Shown here in pieces: positions 7,693-16,222 of a DNA stretch of 20,241 bases; the stretch's first letter is position 1, and each line of letters begins with the position of its first letter. The notes under the pieces are model-generated. The model was not told the DNA's origin and searched no databases. It worked only from the letters and a program-made list of their open reading frames with translations. This DNA comes from a virus (Duplodnaviria; Heunggongvirae; Uroviricota; Caudoviricetes): IMG/VR virus record IMGVR_UViG_2802429219_000017, positions 1-20,241 of that record. One strand, written 5' to 3'. A program made the translations under genes and the position numbers.

Positions 7693-7858
7693 AATTATCT
7701 CCATTTTTACAAATGAATTTTGTCGATGCGGTGCCTGGTGCCTCCAGGTGACGTTAACCAGTTAACAATTAACGCCGGAGTATTTCACCCATAACTCTTA
7801 CGCTTTTAACTGTTCCGCGTGCGCTGAGCCGCATTCACCGCATCACAAAATTCACTTT

Positions 7859-7916
7859 AAAAAGGACGGACATCAGCCAGCAATGAAACTGATGCCGCCA
7901 AAAGGTAATCAACATG
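7859..7916 (-). ncRNA. Candidate DicF-like sRNA 3' module: minus-strand hairpin plus U-run upstream of kilR
   Basis: Minus strand reads ...UUUUGGCGGCAUCAGUUUCAUUGCUGGCUGAUGUCCGUCCUUUUU: an ~11-bp stem with two bulges followed by U5. It occupies the dicF position (immediately before the division inhibitor, in a dicA/dicC-controlled operon). Resemblance to DicF is from imperfect memory. Confidence 0.35.
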
Positions 7917-8149
7917 GGTTGTTGCAGCGGGGTTGTCACTCAAGCGTATGGTCAACCTGACAACCCGGTGCTCCACAGGGGGAGGGAGAATAGCACCCCT
8001 GCCATACTTACCGCCGCGCCATTTCGCGGATTGCCACAACCGGAAGCGCACGGTCGAAGAAATTTAACGACAAGCCTTCTAAGGGAAAAACATCACCTCC
8101 GTGCGCTTTCGTGTTGTGCGCCTGTCTTTTTTTACCACTTCAGGCTCGG

Positions 8150-8158
8150 TGGTATACT
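8150..8158 (+). promoter_or_regulatory. Extended -10 promoter element (TGgTATACT) for the downstream zinc-ribbon gene
   Basis: TG-n-TATACT at 8150-8158, about 33 nt upstream of the ATG at 8191, preceded by a T-run at 8124-8131. The -35 is weak. Confidence 0.4.
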
Positions 8159-8190
8159 GGAGTTCTCACACAACCAGTAAGGAATTTAGT

Positions 8191-8469
8191 ATGGTAATTA
8201 CTTCACTCTGCCCTGTTTGTTTGGCTACATCTTCTGTGCAGACTTTAGTTGAAGGGCAGCGCGAGTTTTTGAAAATTTATCATTGTCCAAATCATGGTAG
8301 TTTTGCCGTTCTTCCTGACCTTGATGTGAAATTGCAAGCAATGAGGTGTTCATCGGGTTATAAGATTGAACATTCGGAAGAGGCTATCAGGCTCGATGCA
8401 CGCTTACGTGAAAGCATACGCCCAGTAGATGGTCCTCAGTCGAAAATTCCAGTATTCCGCTCTGTCTAG
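8191..8469 (+). CDS. Small zinc-ribbon protein (92 aa), function unknown, in the sieB slot
   Basis: ORF MVITSLCPVCLATSSVQ...HCPNHGSF... with AAGGAA SD 6 nt upstream. CPxC...CPNH motif. Convergent to the leftward operon, the orientation of sieB in Rac. Confidence 0.6.
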   Translation: MVITSLCPVCLATSSVQTLVEGQREFLKIYHCPNHGSFAVLPDLDVKLQAMRCSSGYKIEHSEEAIRLDARLRESIRPVDGPQSKIPVFRSV

Positions 8470-8500
8470 TTTTCCCCTGACTGGCACCTTGTGGTGCCGG

Positions 8501-8800
8501 TCACATCTCCTCGATCATCGCATTTACTACGATTCGCAGATCTTCCAGTGCACTTTCAACTTTTAGATCATTTGCAGCTTCACTGACTTTTTTCATGGCA
8601 TCAGCCATTCTTTTAATCAGATCATTTGGAGTCTCTTTTGTGTTAGCAGAAACCCTGCTGGCCAGTTCCAGTGCGAGACGTGCATCTTTCGGTGTAATGC
8701 CTTTATCTTTTGCCATCTCTGCTGCCAGCTCAGAAAGCTCGGATGCAAGAGTGAGTACGCTTCTTCCCGTTTTTGACGGATATATATCGTGCGTGAACAT
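8501..8800 (-). CDS. First gene of the leftward early operon: 99-aa helical protein (YdfA/YdaF-YdaG-like position)
   Basis: ORF with AAGGAA SD, directly downstream of a sigma-70 promoter and operator-like palindromes. Acidic, helical composition. Homology to Qin YdfA/YdfB or Rac YdaF/YdaG is inferred from position only. Confidence 0.6.
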   Translation of the reverse strand: MFTHDIYPSKTGRSVLTLASELSELAAEMAKDKGITPKDARLALELASRVSANTKETPNDLIKRMADAMKKVSEAANDLKVESALEDLRIVVNAMIEEM

Positions 8801-8875
8801 TGTTTTCCTTTTCCCCTTAACGCCGGGTGGCAGAACTGTTTGCTGAGAACACCGTGCGGTGTCTTGATGGATTGT

Positions 8876-8904
8876 AATTTAGTTTTCTCATGAAAATTGG
8901 TCAA
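8876..8904 (-). promoter_or_regulatory. pL-like leftward early promoter (-35 TTGACC, 17-nt spacer, -10 TAAATT)
   Basis: On the minus strand: TTGACC (8899-8904), 17-nt spacer, TAAATT (8876-8881). An operator-like palindrome lies 10 bp upstream of the -35. Confidence 0.55.
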
Positions 8905-8913
8905 GCGTTTTTG

Positions 8914-8927
8914 GTGAGAAAACTCAA
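8914..8927. promoter_or_regulatory. Operator-like site OL (GTGAGAAAACTCAA), near-identical to the palindrome at OR
   Basis: 13/14 match to TTGAGAAAACTCAA at 9448-9461; the two copies flank the repressor gene. Confidence 0.55.
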
Positions 8928-8989
8928 TATTTAATGCAAAATAAAGCCAATACATTGAAATGTAAGGCTTTAAAATTTGTGAAGGGGGG

Positions 8990-9397
8990 TTATTGATGTT
9001 TGTTACGTTTGCGAGCTTCTAGTAGCTCGGTGAATAGGCGATTAAAATTCTCAACGCGGGCACGGAGTTCGCTGATTTGTGCTTGCTGCTCTGATTTTGG
9101 AAGTGCGCGATACAATCGCAACATCTCCAACTCATCTTCCGATAAGTCTAAGGCGCTGTTGAGTGCAACTGGTGGATCTGGTGTTTTATCCTCGTCACCA
9201 AACAGTATCCAAGTTGGTGAACATTGCAATACCTCAGCCAGGCGATGCAAATTTTGCCCGCGCGGGGCTGTATGGTCGCTTTCCCATAGTGAAATTGATG
9301 AGCCAGATACGCCAGCAGCTTTGCTTAAATCGTTTTGACTTAAACCAACCTGTTTGCGTCTTTCTCTAATTCGTTGACCTAAAGTTTTCTCGTTCAT
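8990..9397 (-). CDS. dicA: Prophage repressor, DicA-type XRE-family HTH protein (135 aa, no peptidase domain)
   Basis: HTH region LGQRIRERRKQVGLSQNDLSKAAGVS... and the ...LQCSPTWILFGDEDK... segment match my memory of Qin DicA, which is also 135 aa. Confidence 0.8.
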   Translation of the reverse strand: MNEKTLGQRIRERRKQVGLSQNDLSKAAGVSGSSISLWESDHTAPRGQNLHRLAEVLQCSPTWILFGDEDKTPDPPVALNSALDLSEDELEMLRLYRALPKSEQQAQISELRARVENFNRLFTELLEARKRNKHQ

Positions 9398-9418
9398 ATT
9401 TAGATATCTTAATAACCC

Positions 9419-9448
9419 TTGACTTGAGATTCCTTGAGTGATTACTAT
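9419..9448 (+). promoter_or_regulatory. PR-like rightward early promoter (-35 TTGACT, -10 TACTAT) with TTGAG repeats
   Basis: TTGACT at 9419-9424, 17-18 nt spacer, TTACTA/TACTAT at 9442-9448. Direct TTGAG repeats sit in the spacer. Confidence 0.5.
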
Positions 9449-9461
9449 TGAGAAAACTCAA
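9448..9461. promoter_or_regulatory. Operator OR: perfect 14-bp palindrome TTGAGAAAACTCAA at the PR start site
   Basis: Perfect inverted repeat immediately downstream of the PR -10, just upstream of the cro-like SD. Confidence 0.6.
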
Positions 9462-9474
9462 CTTTGGAGGGGTG

Positions 9475-9702
9475 ATGTTTAAATCAGACGTAATTAATTT
9501 TTATGGGACGAAAGCCAAAGTAGCGAAAGCTGCTGGTGTTGATCCATCCGCTGTTTCTCAATGGGGGGAACTGGTTCCTGAAGGTCGCGCGATGCGCCTG
9601 CAAGAGGCATCCGGCGGGGAACTTCAGTATGACCCCAAAGTTTATGACGAATATCGTAAGGCAAAGCGGGCGGGGAAGGTGATTCATGAAAATCAGGCAT
9701 GA
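9475..9702 (+). CDS. dicC: Cro-like regulator, DicC-type (75 aa)
   Basis: MFKSDVINFYGTKAKVAKAAGVDPSAVSQWGELVPEGRAMRLQEASGGELQYDPKVYDEYRK... resembles DicC. GGAGGGG SD precedes the ATG at 9475; the track ORF begins with TTG at 9448. Confidence 0.7.
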   Translation: MFKSDVINFYGTKAKVAKAAGVDPSAVSQWGELVPEGRAMRLQEASGGELQYDPKVYDEYRKAKRAGKVIHENQA

Positions 9703-10111
9703 GCACATCGAATCAGTGCTGTTAGCCCTGGCAGCCGAAAAAGGGCAGGCGTGGGTCGCTAACGCAATTACTGAAGAATATCTGCGCCAGGGGGGGGGCG
9801 GCGAATTACCCCTGGTACCAGGCAAGGACTGGAACAATCAGCAGAATATCTATCACCGCTGGTTGAAAGGTGAAACGGAAGCGCAAAGGGAAAAAATTCA
9901 GAAACTGATCCCTGCAATTCTGGCAATCCTTCCGCGCGAGCTGCGCCACCGATTCAGCATCTTCGATACCCTGGAACGCCGTGCATTACTGGCGGCGCAG
10001 GAAGCGTTGAGTACGGCAATTGATGCGCATGATGATGCAGTCCAAGCCGTTTACCGGAAAGCGCATTTCAGCGGTGGTGGGTCGTCCGACGATTCTGCTG
10101 TTGTTCATTAA
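9686..10111 (+). CDS. ydaT: YdaT (CII-like fold), 141 aa
   Basis: MKIRHEHIESVLLALAAEKGQAWVANAITEEYLRQGGGG... is near-identical to my memory of Rac YdaT. AAGGTGA SD; overlaps the cro-like stop. Confidence 0.85.
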   Translation: MKIRHEHIESVLLALAAEKGQAWVANAITEEYLRQGGGGELPLVPGKDWNNQQNIYHRWLKGETEAQREKIQKLIPAILAILPRELRHRFSIFDTLERRALLAAQEALSTAIDAHDDAVQAVYRKAHFSGGGSSDDSAVVH

Positions 10112-15378: not shown

Positions 15379-15588
15379 AAACGATTTGCGGGAAAAGGAT
15401 AGTTAAGTAGAATTGCTGCGGGTGCTTGAGGCTATCTGTCTCAGGCATGAACACCAAAGGCAGATAGAGAAAAGCCCCAGTTAACATTACGCGTCCTGCA
15501 AGACGCTTAACATTAATCTGAGGCCAATTTCATGCTAGACACATGTAGGTTAGCCTCTTACGCGCCGAAAGGCAAGGAGAAGCAGGCT

Positions 15589-15744
15589 ATGAAGCAGCAA
15601 AAGGCGATGTTAATCGCCCTGATCGTCATCTGTTTAACCGTCATAGTGACGGCACTGGTAACGAGGAAAGACCTCTGCGAGGTACGAATCCGAACCGGGC
15701 AGACGGAGGTCGCTGTCTTCACAGCTTACGAACCTGAGGAGTAA
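15589..15744 (+). CDS. hok: Hok/Gef-family type I toxin (HokD/RelF-like, 51 aa)
   Basis: MKQQKAMLIALIVICLTVIVTALVTRKDLCEVRIRTGQTEVAVFTAYEPEE matches my memory of the Hok family. AAGGAGAAG SD. An in-frame upstream ATG at 15532 gives a mok-like leader. Confidence 0.85.
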   Translation: MKQQKAMLIALIVICLTVIVTALVTRKDLCEVRIRTGQTEVAVFTAYEPEE

Positions 15745-15961: not shown

Positions 15962-16222
15962 ATGAAAATCGAAGAATTGCGTGAAATTTTTAGTGAAAAT
16001 GGCCTCTATACTGTGCGCGTTGAGAATGGCGCTATTGTCAGTCACTGCCGTATTAAATGTTTACAGTCTCAACAAAGGAAGAGTGGAGCTGCGTTATTTT
16101 ATTTTTGTAATGGACTTCTGACGGACGGTTTTATTTTGCGTGAGGACGAATTTGTCACATCATTAGGGGTTTTGAAAGAGATTGGTTTTAAGGCTGGTTT
16201 TTCTGCTTTTGCTGAAGAATAA
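15962..16222 (+). CDS. Hypothetical small protein (86 aa)
   Basis: GGAAGGA SD 8 nt before the ATG at 15962. Confidence 0.5.
   Translation: MKIEELREIFSENGLYTVRVENGAIVSHCRIKCLQSQQRKSGAALFYFCNGLLTDGFILREDEFVTSLGVLKEIGFKAGFSAFAEE

Follow-up and report, generated by a model that had tools for sequence, protein, structure and literature searches.

Putative operators of a P22/DicA-type immunity switch and a conserved leftward leader in a Rac/Qin-like lambdoid prophage

Background

Which DNA sites would set the immunity of a prophage whose repressor gene is flanked on both sides by the same 14-base-pair (bp) palindrome? The question is raised by a virus DNA of 20,241 nucleotides (nt) (Caudoviricetes; positions 1 to 20,241 of IMG/VR record IMGVR_UViG_2802429219_000017), the whole of which is called the window here, and in which positions 8810-9700 very probably form the immunity region of a Rac/Qin-like lambdoid prophage. 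An earlier note, made from the sequence alone, had taken the two palindromes for repressor operators at the rightward (PR) and leftward (pL) promoters, and had suggested that a separate palindrome at the pL start may bind a second regulator such as Cro. We compared the region with phage P22, with the dicA locus of the Qin prophage of E. coli K-12 and with related phages and prophages. With a probability of roughly 0.8, the repeated 14-mers are ordinary operators of a P22/DicA-type immunity switch with a recognition sequence of its own. For the separate palindrome, a hairpin in the leader RNA of the leftward transcript is the most likely reading, ahead of a second operator.

Results and discussion

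Operator sites and their counterparts in P22

Both 14-mers lie exactly where the earlier note had placed them, one (TTGAGAAAACTCAA) at the PR start and the other (GTGAGAAAACTCAA) beside the -35 of pL, and the additional TTGAG pentamers in the PR spacer are present at 9424-9428 and 9434-9438. The set of candidate sites is larger, however, than had been recognized: three sites (OR1 to OR3) are assigned to the right operator and two (OL1 and OL2) to the left operator (Table 1). OR1 and OL2 are the palindromes already found, whereas OL1 and OR3 had been overlooked and the two TTGAG half-sites had not been recognized as the place of OR2. A motif search over the whole window, one of the checks proposed earlier, gave three matches to the 14-mer with at most two mismatches, the third being OL1, which agrees with OR1 at 12 of 14 positions. 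All three fall inside 266 bp flanking the repressor gene. Only 0.32 such matches are expected per 20 kilobases (kb) of Markov-1 random sequence (the probability of three or more being 0.003), and 0.0036 in shuffles of the two intergenic stretches alone. Inverted repeats of one consensus are present in both control regions at these three sites, and the two weaker ones, OR2 and OR3, were placed by homology.

That homology is to immC of phage P22, with which the control DNA of the immunity region can be aligned. The P22 reference (NC_002371.2) annotates the C2 binding sites OR1-3 and OL1-3 and marks the 5' ends of the PL and PRM transcripts (PRM being the maintenance promoter of the repressor gene). 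The five sites of the window align base for base with P22 OR3-OR2-OR1 and OL1-OL2, in the order CAT-OR3-(-35)-OR2-OR1 on the right and OL1-(-35)-OL2 on the left. Half-sites of 5 bp with a 4-bp gap, and their placement relative to PR, PRM and pL, are common to the two phages, and the center-to-center distances in the window are 24 and 25 bp within OR and 36 bp within OL. The hexamers of pL (TTGACC, TAAATT) and PRM (AGGAAT, TAAGAT) and the PR -35 are identical to those of P22, with the PR -10 being different. Within the operators, the differences are mostly in the half-sites and the central 4 bp; the P22 counterpart of OR2 is ACTAAAGATTCCTTTAGT and that of OL2 is TGAAG-AAAA-CTTAA. P22 also has an OL3, whereas no third left operator is found in the window, where positions 8928-8944 vary and the terminator hairpin of the repressor gene then follows beyond OL2. 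Likewise, P22 has boxA/boxB nutL and the N-like gene 24 after pL, and the window has neither.

The promoters are predictions from a consensus scan and from alignment to the annotated P22 promoters. In each of PR, pL and PRM, one or more of the -35, the -10 and the start are overlapped by the sites, as is usual for an operator array. OR2 extends over the end of the PR -35 into the spacer and includes the predicted PRM -35. The PR start is predicted near 9453-9456, and the P22-homologous -10 would fall at 9441-9446. Transfer of the annotated 5' nucleotide of P22 pL puts the pL start at approximately 8868-8869, and the PRM start is predicted at approximately 9400, three bases before the repressor ATG.

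Recognition helix and half-sites change together

The putative repressor (135 amino acids, aa) has an N-terminal helix-turn-helix (HTH) domain, for which the closest solved structures are those of P22 C2 (1adr and 2r1j, E 2e-15; gapless over residues 1-72) and which is 47% identical to C2 by tblastn. In a Pfam search only HTH families were matched (HTH_3 at 1.2e-16), and the S24 peptidase domain was not found. The C-terminal half is conserved with DicA, and overall the repressor is 53-55% identical to DicA proteins (55% to that of K-12). It is thus a short repressor of DicA type, in contrast to C2, which has 216 aa and a self-cleaving domain.

In P22 C2, Val33 and Gln37 contact bases of the TTAAG half-sites 4 bp apart, with Val33 packing on the thymine methyls of TTAA (PMC5175364). 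The corresponding residues of the window repressor are Ser33 and Leu37, which fits the change at position 3 of the half-site from TTAAG to TTGAG. The same relationship was seen among immunity types collected by a tblastn search across a phage collection and an anchor-pattern scan. The helix GSSISLWESD (window, mEp460 and the E2348/69 prophage) goes with TTGAG; NVAISQWERS (P22) with TTAAG; HVTISQWERD (the PPompW, Rac-442 and L135 type) with TTAG[GA]; HVSVSQWERG (K-12 DicA) with TTAG[TC]; and SSVSVFKWENG (Cronobacter phiES15) with CTAAC. Five helix types thus pair with five half-site types at homologous positions, i.e., helix and half-site covary. For instance, the OL1 position reads TTAGA-ATAG-CCTAA in PPompW and TTAGC-CATG-ACTAA in K-12. 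Own-type sites are present at OR1, OR3, OL1 and OL2 in the PPompW, Rac, Klebsiella and K-12 types, with phiES15 being read at OR1, OL1 and OL2 only and the OR2 position being degenerate in several immunity types. Three repressors that share HVTISQWERD but differ elsewhere have TTAG[GA] half-sites in common, and a Klebsiella phage with this helix has TTAG[GA] halves mixed with TTAAG halves. Immunity specificity thus very likely resides in the pairing of the half-site TTGAG with the recognition helix S-G-S-S-I-S-L-W-E-S-D, and the comparison supports the proposal that the sites define it.

A bound operator of a related prophage points the same way. DicA of K-12 binds the 20-bp inverted repeat Oc, TTGTTAGTCATAACTAACAA, and single-base changes abolish this binding in vivo (PMC3441716). 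Oc aligns with OR1, making OR1 its positional homologue. The palindromes first described as repressor operators in an OL/OR arrangement are therefore positional homologues of annotated P22 operators and of DicA Oc.

Conservation of the sites among related cassettes

A footprint of the region was obtained from 86 loci with repressors 96-100% identical, which gave 48 distinct haplotypes; as the loci are related, the fractions below describe a footprint and are not probabilities. Searched with the repressor alignment, viral contigs yielded no repressor below 99% identity, and this set was used for the footprint but not for diversity. The minor-haplotype fraction was 0.000 for OR3, 0.004 for OR1, 0.004 for OL1, 0.007 for OR2 and 0.018 for OL2, the left half of OL2 being ATGAG in most relatives. 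The pL hexamers and the PR -35 were at or below 0.014 and the PR -10 at 0.056, whereas the pL spacer outside OL1 reached 0.259, the stretch between the pL -35 and OL2 0.153, that between start and -10 0.083, and that just after OR1 0.074. Variation is thus concentrated in the intervening stretches, and the sites and most of the promoter hexamers hardly change.

Homoimmunity was predicted for the cassettes of mEp460_ev081, HannyBb and the potC-adjacent prophage of E2348/69, because their repressors and OR sites match those of the window. Their repressors are 96% identical to that of the window in mEp460_ev081 and HannyBb and identical in translation in E2348/69, and their OR regions are identical or differ only outside the sites. 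The flanking genes differ, and small differences are found in the OL spacers and OL2. In the literature searched, we found no work on mEp460 operators, and full-text searches for the operator, palindrome and leader sequences returned nothing relevant.

Alternative readings of the sites

Several observations weigh against reading all five sites as operators of the switch. The window contains nine matches at 8 of 10 half-site bases, the level of OR2, OR3 and OL1, and six of these are outside the immunity region, so that the three sites rest on comparative evidence and not on the motif. The right half of OR2 reads CTTGA instead of the expected CTCAA, leaving effectively one good half-site. OL2 carries two substitutions in E2348/69, although the repressor there is identical, and the start points of pL, PR and PRM were all placed by homology. 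At the K-12 counterparts of OR2 and OR3, Om and Oa, no DicA binding was seen when they were tested alone in vivo (PMC3441716). The conservation of OR2 and OR3 could also stem from their overlap with PR, PRM and the translation start of the repressor, and not from protein binding. It might therefore be argued that only the strong sites (OR1, OL2 and perhaps OL1) are true operators, and that OR2 and OR3, which both overlap promoter elements and whose 8/10 score is at chance level, are kept as promoter, PRM or translation-start sequence or serve Cro only. We consider this unlikely, though it deserves attention: the OR3 position is occupied by a full own-type consensus site in PPompW, Rac-442 and K-12, the OR2 part of the PR spacer is invariant whereas the free part of the pL spacer varies strongly, and the spacing of 24-25 bp fits cooperative arrays as in P22. 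A more radical view would hold the 14-mers to be chance similarities in AT-rich intergenic DNA with no regulatory role, since matches in the window fall to chance level once three mismatches are allowed. This is extremely improbable and, by sequence comparison, already contradicted: the clustering of the matches with at most two mismatches (three within 266 bp) far exceeds expectation, and the sites are homologous to annotated P22 operators and DicA Oc, covary with the recognition helix and carry the conservation footprint.

Two further features of OR2 and OR3 were observed. The halves at the OR2 position read CTTGAG-ATTC-CTTGAG (9424-9438), a direct repeat, where P22 has the inverted CTAAAG-ATTC-CTTTAG; base 9438 is A in many relatives. 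OR3 is the weakest site, with both halves off consensus at position 3, and a single base separates it from the core of the P22 consensus operator (TTAAGATATCTTAA). OR3 may be a relic of the ancestral specificity or may be weak by design.

Proposed immunity switch

In the proposed switch, dimers of the 135-aa repressor would bind the 14-bp TTGAG-N4-CTCAA sites, namely OR1 over the PR start, OR2 over the PR -35 and spacer and OR3 over the weak PRM, together with OL1 within the leftward promoter and OL2 upstream of its -35. Repressor at OR1 and OR2 would turn PR off and keep the rightward operon (cro, the cII-like gene, replication genes and Q) silent, and repressor at OL1 and OL2 would likewise turn pL off and silence the leftward operon (a 99-aa open reading frame (ORF), kilR, recE, recT, xis and int). 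By analogy with P22 C2 and DicA, repressor at OR may also stimulate its own promoter, and the P22-type Cro is expected to use the same sites with opposite preference. Binding and promoter activity in this scheme, like the start points and the hairpin roles discussed below, are predictions; site positions, P22/DicA homology, helix covariation and conservation were read directly from the sequences.

Without a peptidase domain in the repressor, induction is expected to depend on an antirepressor. In K-12, DicA represses the leftward dicB-type promoter and Rem relieves this repression (PMC10448788). The window encodes a Rem homologue, which follows hok/sok (15420-15744), the same order as hokD-rem in Qin, and which would be the antirepressor of the scheme. 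The likeness to the dicA-dicC-dicBp region of Qin extends to gene order, orientation and repressor length, which are the same, and to the leftward leader, which, palindrome included, is essentially that of the window apart from two base differences. The two differ in helix and half-site, as given above, and in the leftward operon, which contains ydfABC-dicF-dicB in Qin but the 99-aa orphan ORF, kilR and recET in the window. Overall, the region is standard for lambdoid immunity and combines a short, non-cleavable repressor of DicA type, a Cro of P22 type and a homologue of the antirepressor Rem.

The finding is ordinary in kind, namely a further specificity among the well-known P22/DicA operators, and the understanding of such switches is unchanged. 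It would fix the specificity of a widespread prophage cassette (half-site TTGAG-N4-CTCAA, helix GSSISLWESD) and add one more helix-to-half-site pair to the P22/DicA series, which could be used in predicting homoimmunity, in engineering orthogonal repressor-operator pairs and in annotating prophage switches. Novelty beyond this might lie only in the conserved leftward leader.

Table 1. Predicted features of the immunity region and associated genes in the window
Feature	Position	Strand	Description
OR1	9448-9461		TTGAG-AAAA-CTCAA (TTGAGAAAACTCAA); perfect 5-N4-5 inverted repeat; from last base of PR -10 across expected start
OR2	9424-9437		TTGAG-ATTC-CTTGA (TTGAGATTCCTTGA); left half consensus, right half poor
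OR3	9399-9412		TTTAG-ATAT-CTTAA (TTTAGATATCTTAA); directly upstream of repressor ATG; overlaps predicted PRM -10 and start
OL1	8878-8891	minus	ATGAG-AAAA-CTAAA on minus strand (ATGAGAAAACTAAA); leftward promoter spacer and part of its -10
OL2	8914-8927		GTGAG-AAAA-CTCAA (GTGAGAAAACTCAA); 10 bp upstream of leftward -35
Predicted promoter PR	9419-9448	plus	-35 TTGACT 9419-9424, -10 TACTAT 9443-9448; consensus scan
Predicted leftward early promoter pL (dicBp equivalent)	8876-8904	minus	-35 TTGACC 8904-8899, -10 TAAATT 8881-8876
Predicted maintenance promoter PRM	9400-9434	minus	-35 AGGAAT 9434-9429, -10 TAAGAT 9411-9406; homology only
Palindrome (hairpin 1 of leftward leader)	8849-8862	minus	ACACCGTGCGGTGT; RNA GACACC-GCAC-GGUGUU, approximately +7 to +20
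Conserved leader element 2	8813-8836	minus	GUUCUGCCA, then hairpin CCC-GGCGUUAA-GGG
Intrinsic terminator of repressor gene	8941-8972	minus	Main stem-loop 8942-8972, then UAUUUUG
Immunity repressor, DicA type	8990-9397	minus	135 aa; P22 C2-like HTH domain, DicA-like C-terminal half
Cro-like regulator	9475-9702	plus	75 aa; Pfam P22_Cro at 1e-17
YdaT/cII-like gene	9686-10111		cII-like gene of the rightward operon
Orphan ORF	8501-8800	minus	99 aa, acidic; first gene after leftward promoter; no family in Pfam or PHROG
Rem homologue (antirepressor of DicA)	15962-16219	plus	67% identity to K-12 Rem, E 7e-37

The palindrome downstream of the leftward promoter

The separate palindrome exists, one base away from where it had been reported (8849-8862, not approximately 8848-8861). 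It does not lie at the pL start, as had been proposed, but about 7-20 nt downstream of the start predicted from P22 pL homology. A leader of approximately 60 nt, essentially identical (two to five base differences), is shared by the window, PPompW, K-12 Qin and the L135 type. The palindrome is identical in these four types, although the repressor helices differ in all of them and the N-terminal halves of Cro in the three compared. Since the leader is the same in four immunity types, an immunity-specific operator is ruled out for the palindrome. It also bears no similarity to the operator consensus TTGAG-N4-CTCAA, so that neither finding supports its use as a site for a second regulator such as Cro.

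More leaders were retrieved with an independent anchor located further downstream in the transcript (CGCCGGG-N1-4-GCGGAAC). A MAFFT alignment of the leaders misaligned hairpin 1, and each leader was folded individually in place of a formal pair count. About ten different stems were found at the hairpin-1 place, among them GCAC/GUGC, ACAGC/GCUGU, ACAACGA/UCGUUGU, CAAUCAC/GUGGUUG, AUCAC/GUGAU, CACU/AGUG and UCGCU/AGCGA, the last with the GCAC loop of the window. No hairpin was found at that place where the anchor follows coding sequence. Fold z-scores over 40 nt, one per leader type (13 types), combine by our own arithmetic to approximately -5.5. The palindromes range from 12 to 20 bp and the gap between their arms from 2 to 6 nt, and such variable spacing is more easily explained by a nucleic-acid hairpin than by the binding site of a dimeric protein. 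Taken together, these comparisons make a leader RNA hairpin the most likely identity of the palindrome, with a second operator disfavored.

Against the hairpin, the whole leader folds no better than its shuffles (z = -0.23), and the G.U versus A.C pairs that bear on which strand forms the hairpin disagree, two to one. A DNA operator bound by another dimeric regulator (Cro, the cII-like protein or a host factor), modulating the leftward promoter just after the start, would account for a perfect 6-N2-6 repeat next to the start, for its near invariance in the 48 haplotypes (0.003) and for a CAC-N6-GTG core with the same spacing in three leader types. Such an operator is nevertheless improbable. 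A palindrome of this kind is no rarer than chance, with seven perfect 6-N2-6 inverted repeats in the window against 5.6 +/- 2.2 expected; among the four immunity types in which it is identical, Cro and repressor differ in three and the fourth has its own helix and operators; the other leader types do not keep the arm spacing that a fixed protein site would have; and in one of them (L112) the stem requires a G.U pair, which is present only in the leftward RNA. Among known host-factor boxes, those of LexA, CRP and NrdR did not seem to fit the palindrome.

Element 2 of the leftward leader

Downstream of hairpin 1, the leader contains a second conserved element, whose general form is GUUCYGCYA followed by a hairpin (N)CCC-GGCG[UA][UC]AA-GGG(N') with a closing pair of C-G, G-C or A-U. 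Whichever gene stands first, only a few bases separate its ribosome-binding site from the end of element 2. It was found in many phage contigs (loci L087, L088 and L090-L193) of Escherichia, Klebsiella and Cronobacter phages, with several first genes and several immunity regions, and occurs as a single copy in the window, which spans the whole rightward operon up to Q. The element is not coding, since the length of its C-run differs by one base between relatives. Rfam gave no match at gathering scores, and at permissive E-values over 8700-9000 none fell on the leader strand at 8813-8868.

It is possible, though doubtful, that a cis-acting leader RNA of two parts begins with the palindrome, as a variable hairpin at +7 to +20, and continues with element 2. 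On equally tentative grounds, this leader would be common to Rac/Qin/DicA-type and related prophages, whatever their immunity type or first gene. Hairpin 1 and element 2 may affect the stability, processing or translation of the leftward transcript. If real, the two-part leader would amount to a regulatory RNA not described before, one that controls how stable the transcript of the long leftward operon is, how it is translated or how far it is read through, in phages with no recognizable N/nut system.

The position of element 2 (+33 to +56 of the leftward transcript) resembles that of P22 nutL (+36 to +70), and, as in lambda boxB, an unpaired conserved stretch precedes a short GC-rich hairpin whose stem is CCC/GGG. 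However, its loop has 8 bases where boxB has a pentaloop, and the window encodes no arginine-rich-motif protein downstream. A nut site was rejected on the absence of a second copy in the 20-kb window, of a boxA-like sequence on reading the leader and of an N-like protein. A leader peptide was likewise rejected: the window has a GUG-started frame of 11 codons, but the one-base C-run difference among relatives shifts it. A similarity of GGGGTAGCGG to the RfaH ops element was rejected as well, since GGGGTAGCGG is in the template strand when transcription runs leftward and is not kept in the window.

The immunity cassette and its surroundings

The layout is that of lambdoid operator arrays: repressor and cro diverge from a short control region, and a second control region, beyond the repressor gene, faces the leftward operon. 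The Cro proteins of the window and P22 belong to the same family, and between the three immunity types compared the C-terminal half of Cro is conserved and the N-terminal half differs. The terminator of the repressor gene, between that gene and OL2, has a predicted fold of -12.3 kcal/mol (z = -4.0) and is nearly invariant over 8945-8972 (minor-haplotype fraction 0.002).

The cassette (approximately 8810-9695) is mosaic, with joints at approximately 8810-8834 and 9695. Its best matches among E. coli genomes, E2348/69 among them, are about 98% identical, and in E2348/69 it is followed by ydfABC-dicB; in phage mEp460 the identity is 90%. At an identity of at least 95% it is present in several hundred complete E. 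coli genomes, including the reference enteropathogenic E. coli strain E2348/69. The left joint coincides with the ribosome-binding site of the 99-aa ORF, which occupies the place of ydfA in E2348/69 and K-12.

Further along the leftward operon, no convincing leftward ORF was seen over 7705-8500. A plus-strand ORF at 8101-8469 (or from an internal ATG near 8191) lies antisense to the operon, in the place of sieB in Rac; it has a Cys-x2-Cys ... His-Cys-Pro-x-His pattern and no PHROG match. The RalA antitoxin small RNA (sRNA) of the RalR/RalA system is found at 2169-2347 on the plus strand (214 bits), in the interval from xis to recT that it also occupies in Rac.

The window represents the left arm of a Rac/Qin-like prophage, which is integrated next to yebY and the SraC/SdsR sRNA locus. 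The SraC/RyeA and SdsR/RyeB sRNA pair is at 463-607 and, together with yebY, lies directly left of the integrase gene (735-1811), an integrase next to yebY being found in some E. coli genomes as well. The host flank is only about 92% identical to any of 5426 E. coli genomes, and this divergence suggests a host belonging to a non-coli Escherichia.

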